A stretch of 64,000 nucleotides of DNA from a bacterium (lineage in GTDB: Bacteria > Oederibacteriota > CAKKQC01). This document shows, one piece after another, positions 5,327-30,359 of this stretch (positions are counted from its first letter, which is position 1; the number at the start of each line of letters is the position of its first letter). Made by a program: the position numbers and the translations under genes. The notes under the pieces were generated by a model. That model did not search any database, had not been told where the DNA came from, and saw only the letters and a program-made list of their open reading frames with translations. The DNA is taken from NCBI GenBank assembly GCA_919901855.1, contig CAKKQC010000008.1, forward strand, positions 20,345 through 84,344, read 5' to 3'.

Positions 5327-5958
5327 GCCTTGTTCCTGCGGCGGTGGCGGAGGTATTCGAACACGATCGGAAGCAGGGACACCGCGATGATGACGATGAT
5401 GAGCAGGTCGATGCGCTTGATCACGGCGGGGAACGTCTTCCCCAGCGTGTAGCCCAGGAGCGTCACGGAACAGATCCAGCCGATCCCGCCCCACACGTTG
5501 AAGGTCGCGAACCGGCGGTAGGACATCTGCGCGATCCCCGCCACGACCGGAGCGAACGTGCGAATGATGGGAACGAACCGGGCAATCACGATCGTCTTGC
5601 CCCCATGGCGGTCGTAGAACTCCTTCGTCTTGAGAAGGTGGTCGCGCCGGAAGAACCACGTCTGCTTGCGGCGGTAGAGCGGCTCCCCCGCCTTGAGCCC
5701 GATCCAGTAGCCGGTCGCGTCGCCGAGGATCGCCGCGATCGAACCGCCGAGCAGGAGCCACCCGAGCGGGAGGTCGCCGCGCGCGGCGAACAACCCGGCG
5801 GCGACGAGCAGGGAGTCCCCCGGCAGGAAGAATCCGATCAGGAGTCCGGTTTCGCTGAAGACGATGAGCAGGATGCCCGCGAGGCCGCCCCAGCGGATCA
5901 CGCCTTCGACGTCGTAGACCTTCGAGAAGAGATGGATGAGGTCGTTCAGGGACTCCAT
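5323..5958 (-). CDS. dedA: DedA family (VTT domain) membrane protein
   Basis: FSETGLLIGFFLPGDSLL, GDATGYWIG, ARFVPIIRTFAP motifs. Confidence 0.92.
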   Translation of the reverse strand: MESLNDLIHLFSKVYDVEGVIRWGGLAGILLIVFSETGLLIGFFLPGDSLLVAAGLFAARGDLPLGWLLLGGSIAAILGDATGYWIGLKAGEPLYRRKQTWFFRRDHLLKTKEFYDRHGGKTIVIARFVPIIRTFAPVVAGIAQMSYRRFATFNVWGGIGWICSVTLLGYTLGKTFPAVIKRIDLLIIVIIAVSLLPIVFEYLRHRRRNKA

Positions 5959-5990
5959 TGGTGTTCCAACACTGTATCATGGAGCCTTCC

Positions 5991-22823: not shown

Positions 22824-23672
22824 TCAGCGCGGGTGGGATTCCCCCAGCAGGACCTTGAGGTCCCGGGCGTTGCGCACCGCATGGCCCTCGGGATGGTTAT
22901 TGAAGAAGGCGAACTGGCCCGACGCCTCGTGCGCCATGGCGCGGACCTTGGGCACCCACGCCTCGAGTTCGTCCGGGCGGTAGTGGTAGCGGTAGCGCTC
23001 CCCGGGAGACCGACCTCCCGTCTCGTCGTGTCCGATCGGTTGCGAGGGATCCGGCGCGGTCGGACTCCACCATGCGGCTCTGTTCCGGCCGTGGAACCGG
23101 ACGTACCCGACCGGCCCCGTGACCTCGGCCACCGGCGGCGGCAGGTTCGGCAGTTCGGGCTCGTCGACACAGCACAGGGAGATCGCGTGCTTCTTGAGCC
23201 ACGCGATGCCATCGGGCACGAACCAGTCCTTGTGCCGGAACTCGGCAATTACGGGAGCTCCCGTGATCCGGCCCACCAACTCGCGCACATAAGTGGCGTT
23301 CGGCGGGTTGGCCTTGAACGAGTACGGGAATTGGAGCAGGACACCGCCGAGCTTGCCCCCATCGACGAACGGCTTGAGCGCCATCTTGAACGAAGGGAGC
23401 ATCTCCTCGGCCGCCTTCCCCCGCTGGTGCGTGAGCGCCTGGTGGGCCTTCACCACGAACGAGAACCCCGGCGGCGTCCGCCGGACCATGCCCTCGAGGG
23501 ACTTCAGCGCGGGCAGTTGGTAGAACGTGGCGTTCAGCTCGACCGTGTCGAACTCGGCCGCGTAGTGCTCGAGGAACTTCCCCTTGGGGAGCTTGTCGGG
23601 GTAGAACACGCCCCGCCACTCCTCGTACGAGTACCCGCACGTCCCGATCCGGATTGCCGAAGTCCCTACCAC
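22824..23672 (-). CDS. DUF72 family protein (YecE-like)
   Basis: IGTCGYSY.EW.GVFYP, VELNATFY, LLQFPYSF, EFRHKDW, YVRFHGRN, FFNNH. Confidence 0.9.
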   Translation of the reverse strand: MVGTSAIRIGTCGYSYEEWRGVFYPDKLPKGKFLEHYAAEFDTVELNATFYQLPALKSLEGMVRRTPPGFSFVVKAHQALTHQRGKAAEEMLPSFKMALKPFVDGGKLGGVLLQFPYSFKANPPNATYVRELVGRITGAPVIAEFRHKDWFVPDGIAWLKKHAISLCCVDEPELPNLPPPVAEVTGPVGYVRFHGRNRAAWWSPTAPDPSQPIGHDETGGRSPGERYRYHYRPDELEAWVPKVRAMAHEASGQFAFFNNHPEGHAVRNARDLKVLLGESHPR

Positions 23673-23730: not shown

Positions 23731-23853
23731 GAGGGGACGGGACGGAGGGGACGGACGGAGGGGACGGGACGTAGTTGCATAGTTGCATAACTCGGTCAAG
23801 CGTGCGGGATGTCTCAGCGCGGTCATGGAAATGCAACTATGCAACTACGTCCC
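23731..23853. repeat. Short GAGGGGACGG tandem array followed by a perfect 23-bp inverted repeat (REP/REPIN-like)
   Basis: gggacgtagttgcatagttgcat (23766-23788) and its exact reverse complement (23831-23853). Confidence 0.85.
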
Positions 23854-23872
23854 CTAGAATGCCATAGCTCGA

Positions 23873-23921
23873 GGGACATCCTTCGGATCACCGGATTCCT
23901 CCGGCTCGTGCGCCGGGCCCC
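23873..23921. repeat. 49-bp direct repeat, copy 1
   Basis: gggacatccttcggatcaccggattcctccggctcgtgcgccgggcccc; 47/49 identical to 24958-25006. Confidence 0.9.
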
Positions 23922-23958
23922 AGAACGGTCGCGCGCCGCGTCATGCCTCACCAGAGCG

Positions 23959-24303
23959 TCAGGCCTTGGGACCGAGCTCACGGAGAAGCCTTGCGATATC
24001 GGATTCGAGCCGGGGGATGTCGGTCACGACCGTCTCCCATACGAGCGGCGCATCGACGACGGCGTAATCATGGATGAGCTTGTCTCGCATGCCTGCTGCC
24101 TTGCGCCATTCGACCTCGGGGTGGAGTGCTTTCAGCCGATCCGAGACCCGCTTGGCCGCCTCCCCGATGATCTCGAGGTTCCGGTACACAGCATCCTGCA
24201 TCATACGATCGGAAGAGAACCGTTCCCTGCCATCCTTCGTGTAATTCTTGATCATCGCGATCGCATCCCGCATGTGGGCCAGGAAGACCGCGTCGTCCTT
24301 CAC
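23959..24303 (-). CDS. hepT: HepT-like HEPN ribonuclease toxin (DUF86)
   Basis: [15 protein letters not shown] and RDKLIHDY (RX4HxY); overlaps the upstream nucleotidyltransferase stop. Confidence 0.9.
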
Positions 24304-24590
24304 AAAGGGACGGCCTCCGCAAAGATGCGGTCCTTCAGGTAGGGGCTGACACCACGCTCGCTCACCACATCGACTTCGCGTCCGAGCAGGTCACCGACAT
24401 CCTGCCCAAAGCCGATGAGATCGAATAGCGAGCGGCCATCTCGAAAAGCCACGAGCAGGTCCAGGTCACTCTCGGCTCCCGCATCCCCGCGCGCGAAGGA
24501 ACCGAACACGCGAACCCGCTCCACCCCGTATCGGGCGGCCAGACGCATGATTTCCTCGCGGCAAGGCCCGATCAGCTCCTGTATTCCCAC
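24300..24590 (-). CDS. mntA: MntA-like minimal nucleotidyltransferase antitoxin
   Basis: [19 protein letters not shown] (GSX10DXD), [13 protein letters not shown]. Confidence 0.9.
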
Positions 24591-24659
24591 AGCGATTTCA
24601 TTATGCCACAGGGGACCTCAAGGCCAAGCTCCATCGCACGAATGCGGTATCCTGTTGGT

Positions 24660-24860
24660 ATGAGTCGGCGGGGCGTCCGAGCCCGAGATGCGGCGGTGGA
24701 GAAGCGATCCGTGGCGGGAGCGGGGCGGAAGAGGCTGCTCGCCTTGACCCGCTCGGCCGCTACTGGCGCTCCCACGGACTTGGCCCGCAACCACGACCAT
24801 TACCTCTACGGCGCGCCACGGCGCGGTTCCCGCCGACGGCGGCGCAGCCGACCCGAGTAG
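24660..24860 (+). CDS. Small antitoxin-like protein (VapB-type C-terminal motif), possibly a remnant
   Basis: DLARNHDHYLYG, a motif I associate with antitoxins of PIN toxins; TATCCT-N6-ATG upstream; no PIN gene follows. Confidence 0.45.
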   Translation: MSRRGVRARDAAVEKRSVAGAGRKRLLALTRSAATGAPTDLARNHDHYLYGAPRRGSRRRRRSRPE

Positions 24861-24957
24861 CCAGCCCACCGGGGGCAGTGTCCCACAGCTCCAATTGCGC
24901 GGGGGGCGCGGGAACGGGCGGGGCCTTCAACGCCCCGGGCGAGATCAGCAGGGCTCG

Positions 24958-25006
24958 GGGACATCCTTCGGATCACCGGATTCCTCCGACTCGTGCGCCG
25001 GGTCCC
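24958..25006. repeat. 49-bp direct repeat, copy 2
   Basis: gggacatccttcggatcaccggattcctccgactcgtgcgccgggtccc; starts GGGAC and ends GTCCC. Confidence 0.9.
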
Positions 25007-25082
25007 GAGACAGCCGCGGCGCGCATCATCTCGTCCCCCCGATCCTTCCGGGCGTCTTCCACGACCGTCAACCGTCACGCCG

Positions 25083-25289
25083 CTACCATTCCCGCGTCAA
25101 CCATGCCCCGTACTCGACCGCCTGCGAGATATCCGCACGCTCCAGGTCGGGATAGCCCTTGAGGATCTCCTCGAACGGAATGCCGTGGGCCACCTGTCCG
25201 ACGATCCCGGACACGGGGATCCGCATCCCCCTGATGCATGCGCGCCCCCCCATGATCCGCGGGTCAAAGGTGATCCTGTCGAATGTCAT
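25083..25289 (-). CDS. DUF433 family protein (antitoxin-like)
   Basis: RITFDPRIMGGRACIRGMRIPV...EEIL.GYPDL...DI.QAVEY; ATG overlaps the upstream stop (ATGA). Confidence 0.88.
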   Translation of the reverse strand: MTFDRITFDPRIMGGRACIRGMRIPVSGIVGQVAHGIPFEEILKGYPDLERADISQAVEYGAWLTREW

Positions 25290-25609
25290 GCCGCCTTCGC
25301 GGCCGGCTTGAACCTGAAGCCAAGCTCGAGCCTGCCCTTGCACGCGGCCGCAATGTGGGCCAAGAGCGGCAGGGTGGGCGTGCGCGTGTCGCTGCCACTC
25401 TCGAGCCTGGCGATCACGCTCTGCGTGCTCCCGATCTTCCTCGCCAGCGCGGCCTGCGTGAGGTGCGCCCGCCGCCGCGCCTCCCGCACCGCGAGGGCGA
25501 TCTTGGTCCTCGCCCGCTCCTGCTCGTAGTGGAACCTGACCTCGGGATCCTTCAGGAGCTTCCTGAAGAACGGACCCGAGGATTCGTACCGCTTCGCCCG
25601 TCCGTTCAT
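25286..25609 (-). CDS. XRE-family HTH protein (HigA-like antitoxin/regulator)
   Basis: ARRRAHLTQAALARKIGSTQSVIARLESG...PTL; SD AGGAGG upstream. Confidence 0.85.
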   Translation of the reverse strand: MNGRAKRYESSGPFFRKLLKDPEVRFHYEQERARTKIALAVREARRRAHLTQAALARKIGSTQSVIARLESGSDTRTPTLPLLAHIAAACKGRLELGFRFKPAAKAA

Positions 25610-25672
25610 GCGCCAAGCACCTCCTGTCCCCTACTCTATACCCCTCTGGCTATGTCTTACACCACTCCCATT

Positions 25673-27964
25673 TCAACCCCATAGCTTCATCTGCCCCGGT
25701 ACATCATGGCATCTGGGACCCCCGGCGCGCCGGGCAGACGGCTCGGGCGGAAGCCGGGCCGGCTGAAGCAGCGCCTGCAGGGAGGCCAGCGGCCAGCCGA
25801 AGGGGGCGAGGACCGTGGCGGCGGCGCGGAGGGCGAGCGCGACGTAGGCCTCGGTGTCATAGGGCTCCCCGCCTTCGCGGACCTGGAGCGCGAGCGGCCG
25901 GTCCGTGCCCAGGACGTACGCGACCTTCTCCCCCGCCTCCAGCACCGCCCCGCGGCTCACCAACTGCTGGGCCGCCACCGCCACCGGGGTCGGCCGCGCG
26001 TACTCGAGCGGGCCCTTGGACAGGTGCCGGTGGATGGCGAGGTCCGGCCCCCGGAGCCGGCCAGACCGGATCGTCTCCGCCGCCTCCCGGACCCGGTCCA
26101 CGAGGCCTGCCGCGATCACGCGGGCTTCCGCCACGGACGCCGACTTCGCCAGCTCCTCGACCAGCCCCACCTGCAGCGCGCGCACGAACGGGGCCGCGTC
26201 CACGCGCCGCGCTTCGATCCCGCGCGCCTTGACCTCGCCGCTCTCGAAGACGCCCAGATACCGCTGGGCCACCCCGCGCCGCTCGTCCGCCGTGCTCGGC
26301 AGGAACGCGATCCAGCGGTAGACGCCCTCGACCGCGATCGGGAGCCCCGAGCGCCGCTCGATCTCGGCCGCCAGCGCCTCGCACTCCGACACCGTCACGC
26401 GTCCCGTGGGCTTCTCGACCCAGAGGCTGTCCACGATCCCGTGGATCATCCGGTAGCCCAGGTCCTCGGCCGCCTCCTTCGCGCGCAGGAGGGCCTCCCG
26501 CCCCCACGCCGTCGTCGCCTCGTGCGCCTCGATCCGGCCGAACCGGGCGTTGCGGTAGCCCAGGTACCCGAAGGAACAGACGAGGAGCCACTTGTGCGCG
26601 GAGACGCGCGCCTTCGCCCGGGCCCGCCCGGCCTCCGTCGGCGCGGACTTCTTCAGCTCCTTGTACTTGGCCCGCTTCACGAGGAGCGGCGCGAGCACGC
26701 GCGGGATGAGCCCCTGGCGTTTCCGGCACGACCGCAGGCCGGTCTCGGGGATGAGGTCCCCGTCCTCGCGACAGCACGGGCATCCGACGGTCTCGGGCGA
26801 GAGGTTGTGCCCCACCATGATCGCGGGATACATCGAGGCGAAGTCGAGCTCCCCCGCCCCCTCGTGCACGCCCGGTTCCGGCTGGAAGACCAGCCCGCCC
26901 TTGTCCACGGTCAGGAGTTCCTCGCCCGTCTTGAACGACTCCGTCTGCGCCTTGTCCACGGGGATGAGGATGCCGTCGGCGACCGCCTGCGCCAACTGCA
27001 TCGACGAGATCCCGGTCCCCGTGCTCGTCCGCGCGCTCACCTGCACCGGGAGCCGCGAGAGCCGGGCGGTCTCGAAGAGGCCGTCGAACCCGGTCTCGTC
27101 CAGCGTGAACGAGTTTCGCTGGTCGAGGTGAAGCCGGCCGTGCAGGATCCAGGTCTGGTCCCGGTGCACGATGCGGCCGTAGGTGAAGTAGCTCCGGGAG
27201 TCGCTCACCTTCGGCGGCCGCGAGTCGTCGCGGTTGAGGTGGAGGGGGATGCCGTGGCGCTCCGAGAGCTCCCGGAGCCGCGGCAGGAGCCAGCCGTCGC
27301 CGTACTCGGTCAGCAGGAGGTCGGGGTCGTACTCACGGAGCAGCCCGTTGATCCGGTCGAGCATGGCGGCCGGGTCGTCGCCGTCGAGGACCCGGACCTC
27401 GCCCCCGGCCAGGTGGACCTCGATCGAGCCAGCATACCGGCCGTGCGCGGGATGGCCCCCGGTCCCCTCGGCCCGCAGCCCCAGCGTCGCGAACGGCGGG
27501 ATCTCGTAGTCGAGGTCCCAGATCGAGTCCAGGCACTCGAGCCCGCGCAGGATCTCCCCGTCGATCTCCACCCGGACCCGGGCCAGCGGGTGCCGGACGG
27601 TCTCGTAGAACCAGAGCCGGTCGGCCGCTATGTCGGCGTTATAGAACGCGAAATCCGGGAAGGTCCGCATCGCCCCGGCCATGAGCCGCATGGCCCGCTC
27701 GGCGTCCCCGATCCGGATAGCGAAAACCGGGACCTCGCGGCCGGACATGAAGTCGCGGCGCACGGCTGGTTCGAGCTCCACAGGCACCCCCTGCGCCTCG
27801 ATCCACGCCCGGACCCGCTCCGTTTCCGCGGGCGCCGCCTTGAGATACGACGTGGGCCGCCACGGCTCGACGACCCGGACCCGCCGGCCGTCGTCCAGGA
27901 TCAGCCAGACCGTCATCCCCTCGGGGACGGCATAGGCATCCAGTAACCAACCCAGGGTATCCAC
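25673..27964 (-). CDS. Family B DNA polymerase, archaeal PolB2/Dpo2-like (variant motif C, degenerate 3'-5' exonuclease)
   Basis: Motif A ELDFASMYP..NLSPET; motif B KWLLVCSFGYLG; motif C HGIVDSLWV; RYLG, KARGIE.RR. Confidence 0.85.
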   Translation of the reverse strand: MDTLGWLLDAYAVPEGMTVWLILDDGRRVRVVEPWRPTSYLKAAPAETERVRAWIEAQGVPVELEPAVRRDFMSGREVPVFAIRIGDAERAMRLMAGAMRTFPDFAFYNADIAADRLWFYETVRHPLARVRVEIDGEILRGLECLDSIWDLDYEIPPFATLGLRAEGTGGHPAHGRYAGSIEVHLAGGEVRVLDGDDPAAMLDRINGLLREYDPDLLLTEYGDGWLLPRLRELSERHGIPLHLNRDDSRPPKVSDSRSYFTYGRIVHRDQTWILHGRLHLDQRNSFTLDETGFDGLFETARLSRLPVQVSARTSTGTGISSMQLAQAVADGILIPVDKAQTESFKTGEELLTVDKGGLVFQPEPGVHEGAGELDFASMYPAIMVGHNLSPETVGCPCCREDGDLIPETGLRSCRKRQGLIPRVLAPLLVKRAKYKELKKSAPTEAGRARAKARVSAHKWLLVCSFGYLGYRNARFGRIEAHEATTAWGREALLRAKEAAEDLGYRMIHGIVDSLWVEKPTGRVTVSECEALAAEIERRSGLPIAVEGVYRWIAFLPSTADERRGVAQRYLGVFESGEVKARGIEARRVDAAPFVRALQVGLVEELAKSASVAEARVIAAGLVDRVREAAETIRSGRLRGPDLAIHRHLSKGPLEYARPTPVAVAAQQLVSRGAVLEAGEKVAYVLGTDRPLALQVREGGEPYDTEAYVALALRAAATVLAPFGWPLASLQALLQPARLPPEPSARRAGGPRCHDVPGQMKLWG

Positions 27965-27999
27965 ATCGCCATGATAGTGAACGGGCGTTCACGTATCAA
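27962..27999 (-). promoter_or_regulatory. Leaderless sigma70 promoter with a LexA-type palindrome (GAAC-N4-GTTC) in the spacer
   Basis: Minus strand TTGATA (27994-27999)-cgtgaacgcccgttcac (17 nt)-TATCAT (27971-27976)-N6-GTG (27964); palindrome GTGAAC-N4-GTTCAC at 27977-27992. Confidence 0.8.
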
Positions 28000-28015
28000 G
28001 CAACCCGGCTCCGGG

Positions 28016-28588
28016 TCAGGCTTTCCGCGCCTCCCAGCCCTCCCGGGTCATGACCACATCGGATTCGAACCGGCCCTTGGCCCCCGGCGCCTGCGCATAC
28101 ATCCCGTGGAGGGTATACCCGGCCCGCCGGAACGTCCGGAGGCTCCTCGGGTTGTAGTCCCCGATCGAGAGCCCGAAGATCATGTCCGCCCCCCGCTCCT
28201 CGAACCCGAACCGGGTCAGGAGCCGGACCGCCCGGGTCCCGATCCCGCGCCCCCAGAGCCCCTTCTCGCCGATCGACAGGTCGATCCGGAACAGGAGCTT
28301 TCCCCGGTAGAGGTCGAGCAGGCGCTGGAGGTTCATCCGCTGGAGCCAGCACTCACCCACGGGAATCCCCCCGTGCTCGATCATGAACATGAACGCGGAC
28401 TCCGAGACCTGGGCATAGAGCCCCTTCGTCTCCTCCATGGTCCGGGATCGGATGTCGTCACCCTCGGAGAAATACAGGACTTCGGGATCGTTGTTCCAGC
28501 GGTAGAGGACGTCCCAGTCGCCCTCCGTCAGCGGCCGGAGAACGACCTCCCCGTCCCGGAGCGTGACCTCGTGCGTCCGGAGCGGCAC
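28016..28588 (-). CDS. GNAT N-acetyltransferase (RimJ/RimL-like)
   Basis: VVLRPLTEGD..LYRWNNDPEV, IGEKGLWGRGIGTRAV, YNPRSLR.FRRAGY. Confidence 0.85.
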   Translation of the reverse strand: MPLRTHEVTLRDGEVVLRPLTEGDWDVLYRWNNDPEVLYFSEGDDIRSRTMEETKGLYAQVSESAFMFMIEHGGIPVGECWLQRMNLQRLLDLYRGKLLFRIDLSIGEKGLWGRGIGTRAVRLLTRFGFEERGADMIFGLSIGDYNPRSLRTFRRAGYTLHGMYAQAPGAKGRFESDVVMTREGWEARKA

Positions 28589-28592
28589 GGCC

Positions 28593-30359
28593 TCAGGACG
28601 ACGGCGAGAGGGCCGCCTGCTGGCGGTAGATGTCGGCGAAATAGCCGTGGCCGTCGCGGAGCTCGGCCGGCGGTCCCTCCTCGACGATGCGGCCCGCGTC
28701 CATGACCAGGATCCGGTCGCAACTGGCCACGGAGCCCACCCGGTGGCTGACGATGACCGCCGTGCCGCCCTTCATGAACGACCGGAGGGTGGCGAGCAGC
28801 CGCTGCTCGGTCTCGCCGTCCAGGGCGCTCATGGCCGAGTCGAGCACCAGGATCTCGGGGTCGGTCAGGAGGGCCCTGGCGATCGAGAGCCGCTGCTTCT
28901 GTCCGCCCGAGAGCGAGACCCCGCGCTCCCCTATCACGGTCTCGAGGCCCCCCTTATGCTCGCGAACGAAGTCCGCGGCCATCGAGTCGTCCAGCGCCTT
29001 CCAGATCGCGGCATCGTCGCGGGCGCCCTGGGTGTAGAGCACGTTCTCCCGGATCGTGCCCGAGAACAGGACCACGTCCTGGGGCACGAGGCCGAACGCC
29101 CGGCGCACGCTCGCCAGCTCCCACTCCCTCAAGTCCCGGCCGTTGAGGAGGATACGTCCCTCCGTCGGGTCGTAGTACCGGAGCATTAGCGCCATGAGCG
29201 TGGACTTGCCGCAACCGGACGGGCCGATGATCCCGACCTGCCGGCCGGCCTGCATCGTGACCGAGACGTTGCGCAGGGACCAGGGCAGGGCCGGGCCGTA
29301 TCGGAACGAGACCTTCTCGAAGACGATCTCGCGGACGGGCTCCGTCAGCCGCGGAGCCCCGGGGGCGCTCGCGATCTCGATCGGCTCGTCCAGGAGCCGG
29401 AAGACCTTGGTGAGCGACCCCGAGGCCTGCGCGACCATCTGGGGCAGGTTGCACACGGCGATCACCGCCGGGAACAGGGACCCGAAGTAGCCGTAGAACG
29501 CGACGATGGTCCCCAGGGTGGCCTGCCCCCGGAGGTAGAGATAGCCGCCGTACACGAACACGATCATGAACCCGATGTGGATGAGCAGTCCGTTGATGAA
29601 CCCGTAGGTCGCCGAGTAGCGGTTGTACTCGACGTGCAGGTCGCGGTGCAGGAACGCGCGCTTGCCGAACTTCTCCGCCTCGTAGTCCTCGGCGGCGAAC
29701 GAGCGGACGACCCGGACGGCCCCGACCTTCTCGACCACCATCCCGCAGAGGATGCCCCAGTTCTCGCGGATCTTCTCGCTCGTGCCCCGCATCTTGGGGC
29801 GGAGCCAGAAGAACGCGGCGATCATGCCCGGGAACACGGCCGTGATCGCGAGCGTGAGCGGCAGGCTCATCCGGATCAGGATCACGTACCCGCCGAGCAC
29901 GATCAGGGCGTTCGCCAGCGCGTTGATCATGCCCGCGGTCATGACGTGGGTGATGGCCCCGGGGTCGCCCACCGCGGTCATGAGCAGCCGGCCCGCGTGG
30001 GAGCCGTCGTAGAACTTCTGCGACAGCTTGAGCATGTGGTCGGCGAGCACGGTCCGCGAGCGCTGGGTCACGACGACGAGGAGCCGGAACAGGACGCGGT
30101 TGAACAGGAACACCAGGAACGAGTTCGCGAAGAGAATGCAGGCGCCGACCACGATGACGACGACGCCCACGCTCCAGGACCAGTGGTCGGAAACGAGCAC
30201 CCGGTCCACCATGGTCTTGTTCGCGTACGGCCACCACAGCCCCAGCGTCACGCGCACGAGGATGTTCGCGATCAGGATGGACACGACCGTCCGGTGCGGC
30301 AGGATGAACTCGCGGAAGAACCGCCAGAAGTACGATGGTTCGATCTGCGCTTTAGCCAC
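28593..30359 (-). CDS. ABC exporter half-transporter (TMD-NBD), non-canonical Walker B
   Basis: GPSGCGKST, LSGGQKQR, ILVLDS (Glu to Ser), SHR. Confidence 0.9.
   Translation of the reverse strand: MAKAQIEPSYFWRFFREFILPHRTVVSILIANILVRVTLGLWWPYANKTMVDRVLVSDHWSWSVGVVVIVVGACILFANSFLVFLFNRVLFRLLVVVTQRSRTVLADHMLKLSQKFYDGSHAGRLLMTAVGDPGAITHVMTAGMINALANALIVLGGYVILIRMSLPLTLAITAVFPGMIAAFFWLRPKMRGTSEKIRENWGILCGMVVEKVGAVRVVRSFAAEDYEAEKFGKRAFLHRDLHVEYNRYSATYGFINGLLIHIGFMIVFVYGGYLYLRGQATLGTIVAFYGYFGSLFPAVIAVCNLPQMVAQASGSLTKVFRLLDEPIEIASAPGAPRLTEPVREIVFEKVSFRYGPALPWSLRNVSVTMQAGRQVGIIGPSGCGKSTLMALMLRYYDPTEGRILLNGRDLREWELASVRRAFGLVPQDVVLFSGTIRENVLYTQGARDDAAIWKALDDSMAADFVREHKGGLETVIGERGVSLSGGQKQRLSIARALLTDPEILVLDSAMSALDGETEQRLLATLRSFMKGGTAVIVSHRVGSVASCDRILVMDAGRIVEEGPPAELRDGHGYFADIYRQQAALSPSS

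Follow-up and report, generated by a model that had tools for sequence, protein, structure and literature searches.

The 64,000-nucleotide stretch of contig CAKKQC010000008.1 analysed here (64 kb, hereafter the window, numbered from its first base) comes from a bacterium of the Oederibacteriota and carries on its minus strand polB2, a gene for a protein of the B family of DNA polymerases. This text concerns polB2 and the promoter in front of it, the spacer of which holds a palindrome predicted to be an operator of the SOS repressor LexA. The features of the locus are the following:

27994..27999, minus: -35 hexamer TTGATA, from sequence reading and promoter scan
27993-27977, minus: 17-nt spacer cGTGAACgcccGTTCAC, from sequence reading
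27977..27992, strand-neutral: predicted LexA operator, the perfect palindrome GTGAAC-N4-GTTCAC, taking up 16 of the 17 spacer bases
27971..27976, minus: -10 hexamer TATCAT, identical to the hexamer of the lexA promoter
27962..27970, minus: 6-nt gap (ggcgat) and GTG start codon (27964-27962) without Shine-Dalgarno sequence, predicted to be leaderless or near-leaderless
25673..27964, minus: polB2 open reading frame (ORF), 763 codons, the GTG being its first possible start

The arrangement given in the original prediction, namely TTGATA, a spacer with the palindrome, TATCAT, six bases and GTG on the minus strand, proved exact on re-reading. A consensus scan of positions 25000-29000 returned this as the only sigma70-like site, with 10 of the 12 consensus positions matched (shuffle mean 0.1), in agreement with its earlier description as near-consensus. 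The upstream gene ends at 28016, leaving an intergenic gap of 51 nt before polB2, and the polB2 transcript, its start site being deduced from the sequence, is predicted to be leaderless or near-leaderless. The perfect 16-mer occurs once in the window; when up to two mismatches were allowed, 86 of 100 shuffled versions contained at least one match, and the palindrome is therefore not significant within the window.

The LexA-type box in the host genome

At the scale of the host genome (G000; 4.68 Mb, 69% G+C, 91 contigs, 93.5% complete), four perfect copies of the 16-mer were found where a first-order Markov model predicts 0.134 (Poisson P(>=4) = 1.2e-5). A search for the full architecture, defined as TTGNNN, a spacer of 16-18 nt containing GAAC-N4-GTTC with at most one substitution, and TANNNT, returned exactly three sites, which precede lexA, an operon encoding the proteins iRadA and PPB2, and polB2. 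The same search with 11 control palindromes, obtained by permuting the half-sites, gave 0-2 sites each and 6 altogether. The three promoters follow one design (TTGnnn, 1 base, GTGAAC-N4-GTTCAC, TAnnnT, 6-9 nt, start codon), and at all of them the start codon lies 6-9 nt past the -10 hexamer without a Shine-Dalgarno sequence, the gap to the ATG being 7 nt at lexA and 9 nt at iRadA. The two units other than polB2 are located on contig C6:

G000:C6:128459-128474: lexA box, half-sites identical to those of the polB2 box
G000:C6:128488-129084: lexA, encoding a LexA of 198 aa
G000:C6:129475-129490: iRadA-PPB2 box, half-sites identical to those of the polB2 box
G000:C6:129506-130171: iRadA, 221 aa, with the degenerate Walker A motif GEGTRH
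G000:C6:130175-130474: PPB2, 99 aa, with the N-terminus MGRT

The protein encoded by lexA matches both domains of the repressor in Pfam (LexA_DNA_bind PF01726 at 1.7e-10 and Peptidase_S24 PF00717 at 4.4e-32) and scores 153.8 bits on TIGR00498, above the cut-off of 110.95; it is the one full match in the genome, the other S24 or helix-turn-helix (HTH) matches being marginal at 24-25 bits. Its sequence contains GRVPAGAP, GDSM and TVKR, which we take to comprise the Ala-Gly cleavage site (within GRVPAGAP) and the Ser/Lys catalytic dyad (the Ser of GDSM and the Lys of VKR). The promoter of this gene reads TTGCAT-cGTGAACgatgGTTCAC-TATCAT, 7 nt, ATG, i.e. it has the same box in the same design as polB2, and from its position the box can be read as classic autoregulation. 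The box belongs to the GAAC-N4-GTTC class of LexA operators. The proposal that polB2 is under LexA control through the box in its promoter spacer is thus backed by a lexA gene in the genome, by the shared box and by the conservation described below. A recA gene is also present, with AAGGAGG in its leader.

Beyond the three units, the genome-wide architecture search assigned promoter architecture to none of the additional sites among 37 near-consensus ones. A classical SOS regulon was accordingly not seen, in that no further box-in-promoter site was found, the uvrA and uvrB promoters not having been inspected singly, and the detectable LexA regulon of this genome is apparently minimal, consisting of three promoters. 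Domain searches found one DnaE-type and one B-family polymerase in G000; in this 93.5% complete genome they found no Y-family polymerase (IMS domain) and, next to the single DnaE, no DnaE2. Subject to that completeness, the organism may have no specialised polymerase other than the PolB2 complex.

Several other occurrences of the box were recorded. The fourth perfect copy (G000:C1:223384-223399) lies inside a Wzy_C/TPR (O-antigen-ligase-like) gene and may be due to chance or be an intragenic LexA site. The box ATGAACGACTGTTCAC is located at an extreme contig end (G000:C60:1-16), where it is cut by the contig edge, and its 14-mer core with an identical N4 recurs in a related genome at G004:C104:6700. 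A perfect 14-mer at C10:122280, which overlaps the opening codons of a small ORF, was set aside. Gene calling based on G+C at third codon positions (GC3), applied to the 37 near-consensus sites, was crude and over-called the intergenic class, and was dropped.

PolB2 and its candidate partners

In Pfam, PolB2 matches PF00136 only (5.5e-27), with no match to the exonuclease domain PF03104. Its best matches in the PDB are archaeal PolB (1.8e-46), E. coli Pol II reaching only 1.3e-10. The protein has motif A (LDFASMYP) and motif B (KWLLVCSFGYLGY), and both motifs are invariant, as is the second Asp of the DxD motif, in an alignment of 20 homologues. Motif C reads HGIVDS: in 20/20 homologues the column of the first Asp of DxD is occupied by I or L, and neither H508 nor D512 varies in any of them. 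In an alignment to P. abyssi PolB, the position that we take to be the Exo II Asp falls on a Leu in GDGWLLP; judged on this position and on Pfam, the active site of the proofreading exonuclease appears to be lost. These sequence features identify the 763-aa protein as a predicted bacterial PolB2 (G2), an exonuclease-deficient B-family polymerase, the features of this group having been described in the accessible parts of PMC11791011 and PMC12926913. A homologue search scored 8000 candidates, of which 3904 passed E<=1e-10, the named ones belonging to Nitrospirota, Armatimonadota, Leptospirales and others.

An identity as E. coli-type DNA polymerase II was considered and rejected: the protein has no exonuclease domain and no intact DxD, the sequence relation is weak, and on the NCBIfam Pol II models it reaches 40-62 bits against cut-offs of 570-1435. 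NF004416 was uninformative as a marker of PolB2, no control genome being above its cut-off.

The original prediction called the polymerase stand-alone and stated that no RecA/RadA-like accessory gene adjoins it. The second statement stands, since no homologue of iRadA or PPB2 lies within 6 kb upstream of polB2, either in G000 or in a genome of another genus of the same family (G004). The first does not hold for the genome as a whole: on contig C6, 390 nt past lexA, lies the iRadA-PPB2 operon, preceded by the second of the two boxes there, which is the third copy of the operator-promoter. Both genes are single-copy in G000 and lie on a different contig from polB2, the adjacency usual for the family being absent. 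With its partners behind the same operator elsewhere in the genome, polB2 is therefore locally alone, not functionally alone.

The assignment of the two partners rests on profile, fold and synteny, no family for iRadA or PPB2 having been found in Pfam and NCBIfam. Among 80 loci fetched around PolB2 homologues, 66 have an ORF directly upstream of PolB2 that matches the 221-aa protein, 68 have one that matches the 99-aa protein, and a LexA homologue is found in the flank of 34. When the count is restricted to the 70 loci whose upstream flank reaches at least 1100 nt, 66 have both partners, which lends indirect support to a place of the host protein in the bacterial PolB2 clade, and PPB2 ends less than 400 nt from PolB2 in 63; in the remainder, neither partner was found in three (L012, L033, L081) and PPB2 only in one. 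A profile of 48 iRadA-like proteins matches archaeal RadA at 6.4e-10, and the AlphaFold2 model of iRadA (predicted local distance difference test, pLDDT, 86.9; predicted template modelling score 0.82) has DMC1, RAD51 and RadA as its best fold matches. The N-terminus MGRT is a hallmark of PPB2 according to the accessible part of PMC11791011.

A model of the PolB2-iRadA complex obtained a score of 0.71 (0.75, 0.71 and 0.70 in the single runs), compared with 0.00 for the best of three controls, with a contact agreement of at least 50% and a partner pLDDT of 76-77. Of 80 solved complexes, 58 had reached the mark applied, as had 2 of 110 mismatched pairs; these counts hold only roughly here because the alignments were our own. 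On PolB2 the predicted interface comprises residues 337-351, including the F344-K-T-G stretch that directly precedes the 'DK' motif with its invariant D354; E342, F344, K345, D354, G356 and G357 are invariant in 20/20 homologues, and the presumptive iRadA-binding loop precedes a D(K/R) motif in these. The loop before the 'DK' motif has been predicted to mimic the Rad51 oligomerisation motif (PMC11791011, accessible part). The model thus supports the prediction that PolB2 binds iRadA.

Two further observations concern these proteins and their genes. PolB2 (25673-25700) ends in ..PGQMKLWG and iRadA (G000:C6:130140-130171) in ..PQMVFGFPE, both tails resembling beta-clamp motifs; such motifs are reported, in what is accessible of PMC11791011, to be almost never present in both PolB2 and iRadA of one organism. 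On contig C6, a PIN_3-domain gene (G000:C6:130751-131296; L008 6752-7297) follows PPB2 at the place where canonical operons have polB2, and its position may be a trace of the rearrangement by which the operon was split.

The box promoters in other genomes

Conservation was assessed in 60 further genomes of the same phylum, four of them (G001-G004) from the same family as the host. PolB2 was found in three of these four and in 0 of the other 56. The promoters read in relatives are:

G004, lexA: TTGCCT-tGTGAACactaGTTCAC-TACACT, 6 nt, ATG
G004, iRadA: TTGACA-tGTGAACgaatGTTCAC-TAGCCT, 9 nt, ATG
G004, polB2 (unlinked gene): TTGATA-gATGAACgttcGTTCAC-TAGCAT
L101, polB2: TTGATC-tGTGAACgtttGTTCAC-TACCAT, 6 nt, GTG, directly after an ATP-binding cassette (ABC) transporter gene

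L101 is a metagenomic relative whose PolB2 is 82% identical to that of the host, and its promoter keeps the 6-nt gap and the GTG. In an alignment of seven promoters from three genomes or contigs, TTG, TGAAC, GTTCAC and TA...T are invariant in 7/7 and the N4 varies freely; invariant half-sites around a variable N4 have the appearance of a typical footprint. At polB2 itself, the box is thus kept in another genus (G004) and in L101, and the expectation that it precedes polB2 orthologues was borne out there and failed in G003. In the latter genome a single contig encodes iRadA, PPB2 and PolB2, all on the same strand and separated by inserts of 3.4 kb and 1.65 kb, and the end of that contig cuts off the iRadA promoter. 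In G001 a box with one mismatch lies between lexA and iRadA. The genomes G000, G001, G003 and G004 each yielded all four proteins (LexA, iRadA, PPB2 and PolB2), and searches of the 90% complete G002 returned none of them.

In other phyla, an exact GAAC-N4-GTTC was found at the start of iRadA or lexA in 7 of 64 canonical operons (background 0.007 per window scanned), and three of those seven (L037, L048, L079) have the design TTGACA-box-TATAAT. The box-in-promoter design is therefore older than the split of the operon.

Two individual polB2 genes deserve mention. In G004 (L090/L007, G004:C18, about 1400-1495) the box promoter is followed by a leaderless upstream ORF of 19 codons that ends 7 nt before the ATG of polB2, and this gene may use translational coupling rather than a leaderless start. 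Another unlinked polB2, at locus L081 in an Ignavibacteriales metagenome-assembled genome, has a different palindrome, ACGACAAATTTGTCGT, between TTGACA and TATAAC (about 5890-5960), with a second copy just downstream; it is probably that lineage's own LexA operator. Upstream of polB2 in the window, a GNAT acetyltransferase gene (28016-28588, minus) is situated between the ABC transporter and polB2. This gene is missing in L101, where the stop codon of the ABC-transporter gene overlaps the -35 hexamer of the polB2 promoter, and its presence or absence is an insertion or deletion at the very edge of that promoter.

A predicted LexA-controlled mutasome, its alternatives and its surroundings

We consider it probable, at roughly 0.8, that polB2 provides a bacterial mutasome of PolB2, iRadA and PPB2 with its catalytic subunit. 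The three genes occupy two separate loci, and LexA, rather than a shared operon, would coordinate them. According to this model, a LexA dimer would occupy the 16-bp palindrome between -35 and -10 and thereby occlude RNA polymerase; DNA damage would activate RecA and bring about the self-cleavage of LexA, upon which the lexA, iRadA-PPB2 and polB2 units would be derepressed together and their leaderless mRNAs translated. PolB2 would bind iRadA through its FxxA/G-like loop (residues ~337-351), PPB2 would join as a trimer through its MGRT arm, and the resulting complex, acting at the beta clamp, would serve in translesion or extender synthesis.

A number of observations weigh against this model or parts of it. 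The box is absent from the 340 nt upstream of recA, where the original prediction had suggested looking for it, and a classical SOS regulon is thus not seen; the repressor may be dedicated to the cassette. Nor is there a box directly upstream of polB2 in G003. The copy at C1:223384 is intragenic, and a perfect box is therefore not always a promoter; the box at the end of contig C60, in a genome of 91 contigs that is 93.5% complete, means that the regulon may be larger than three promoters. The score of the complex model may partly reflect memory of solved Rad51-FxxA interfaces.

The absence of the box at recA bears on the alternative in which the operator is real and LexA serves the cassette alone under a signal other than RecA and damage, or some other regulator binds the box. 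It would fit a detectable regulon made up of lexA and the mutasome genes, with recA outside, and the failure to find LexA in G002, the sole genome of the family without the mutasome. We nevertheless regard it as unlikely: the repressor is a full LexA equivalog with its Ala-Gly site and Ser/Lys dyad intact, recA is present, and the box is of the GAAC-N4-GTTC LexA type. The distribution of the partner genes bears in turn on whether PolB2, as first proposed, acts under LexA control by itself without accessory proteins. The empty 6 kb upstream of polB2 in G000 and G004 would agree with this, and loci L033 and L081 likewise have a polB2 without iRadA or PPB2 as neighbours; yet single-copy iRadA and PPB2 stand behind the same operator in G000, the four genes co-occur or are jointly missing across the five family genomes, the PolB2-iRadA interface passes where controls give 0.00, and the loop residues E342, F344 and K345 are invariant in all 20 homologues, all of which makes a solitary enzyme quite unlikely.

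An older view holds such proteins to be inactivated polymerases, which here would leave PolB2 a catalytically dead relic with a structural or regulatory role. The replaced first Asp (IVD) and the missing exonuclease signature speak for it, and the group was called inactivated in the accessible part of PMC4104785; however, Dpo2 of Sulfolobus islandicus, with the same kind of substitution (IID), has been reported to be active in translesion synthesis (TLS) (PMC11791011; PMC8764526; PMC7390963, accessible parts), and motifs A, B and the second Asp are invariant, which renders a dead enzyme very unlikely. As for a chance palindrome in an ordinary promoter without any repressor, the shuffles of the window by themselves would allow it, but the genome-wide excess of perfect copies, the identical promoter positions of three copies at functionally linked genes, and half-sites that are conserved across genera around a variable N4 make it extremely improbable.

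Within the mutasome model, a stronger version can be put forward tentatively, as somewhat less probable than its negation: in this uncultured lineage LexA would have been reduced to serving as the switch of a single machine, three leaderless promoters would make up the entire detectable SOS regulon, and LexA and the mutasome would be gained or lost as a unit though physically split, the regulon having replaced the operon. The PolB2 mutasome would then be the only translesion polymerase, because no Y-family polymerase or DnaE2 was found in G000.

The kind of system is known, contrary to the novelty implied by the original prediction. As far as the accessible parts of the two papers go, lexA-linked PolB2 operons in bacteria were reported in 2014 (PMC4104785) and, together with the mutasome model, in 2025 (PMC11791011); both describe bacterial PolB2 as encoded in iRadA-PPB2-PolB2 operons, often with lexA, an example being LFML04_0990-0993 of Leptospirillum ferriphilum, in the order lexA-iRadA-PPB2(arCOG07300)-polB2. 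The system described here resembles these operons in its four protein families, the lost first Asp of DxD, the dead ATPase site of iRadA, the MGRT of PPB2 and a linked lexA (linked here to iRadA-PPB2), and differs from them in that the polB2 of G000 is unlinked, on another contig and behind its own copy of the operator-promoter, the polB2 of G004 being at least 18.8 kb from any partner. For bacteria, PMC11791011 gives, in its accessible part, only the order iRadA-PPB2-PolB2, derived from genes lying near each other. Our literature search, which did not extend to the supplements of PMC11791011, returned no report of the operator sequence, of an unlinked polB2 with its own operator-promoter or of a LexA regulon confined to the mutasome, and no paper pairing PolB2 with 'SOS box' or 'LexA box'; the accessible part of a paper on Bacteroidetes LexA (PMC8565304) contains no mention of PolB, PolB2 or RadA. 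The new elements are an operator given explicitly, a division among three promoters that each hold a LexA box, and the apparently minimal regulon.

Other multi-subunit or LexA-controlled polymerases provide useful comparisons. In Proteobacteria and Actinobacteria, the lexA-imuA-imuB-dnaE2 cassette is a LexA-controlled multi-gene mutasome with an inactive RecA-like protein, ImuA, and is sometimes split into LexA-regulated units; it uses the C-family polymerase DnaE2 and the Y-family-like ImuB, and has no homology to PolB2 or PPB2, whereas in G000 one DnaE and no IMS domain were found. E. coli DNA polymerase II (polB/dinA) is likewise a LexA-repressed member of the B family, but it works as a single subunit, its proofreading exonuclease is active and its DxD intact, and it is only weakly related in sequence. 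S. islandicus Dpo2 is shorter than the PolB2 of G000. Like the latter, it is a B-family polymerase without a working exonuclease, with the I-x-D form of motif C and the partners iRadA and PPB2; it is damage-inducible, as is predicted here, but its clamp is PCNA, not the beta clamp, and its regulation is of the Orc1/Cdc6 type without LexA (PMC11791011, accessible part). The Pol V mutasome of E. coli (UmuD'2C-RecA) is also a LexA-controlled multi-subunit TLS polymerase with a recombinase-fold subunit, an architectural analogy already drawn in the accessible part of PMC11791011, but its catalytic subunit is of the Y family and its recombinase is active RecA, not a dedicated inactive paralogue.

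Bacterial PolB2 mutasomes have so far been described in silico only, and their link to the SOS response rested on gene neighbourhood. The present locus supplies a concrete operator, GTGAAC-N4-GTTCAC, flush between -35 and -10 and in three copies with natural variants of the N4. With the catalytic subunit encoded apart from its partners, coordination would depend on the repressor alone, and the locus is a natural case of this arrangement. If a closed genome of this organism were to show the minimal regulon and no other TLS polymerases, PolB2-dependent bacterial mutagenesis could be studied without competing polymerases.

Finally, the surroundings of polB2 in the window offer some minor observations. 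On the strand of polB2, 2 kb downstream of it, there is a DUF72 gene (22824-23672, minus; 2e-64), without a LexA box of its own in the window scan; DUF72 is enriched near polB2 in archaea and bacteria and is related to UV-damage endonuclease, according to the accessible part of PMC11791011. Between polB2 and this gene (23800-25620) there are small toxin-antitoxin-like genes, namely an XRE-type HTH, DUF433 and NTP_transf_2 (MNT-like), and the corresponding place in L101 (4773-6226) holds PIN and MNT/HepT genes. A mobile-element origin of polB2 was rejected, given the ABC-transporter flanks conserved with L101 and an unremarkable G+C content (GC), yet the toxin-antitoxin-like genes do follow polB2, and GC dips to 0.61 at 24200-24599.

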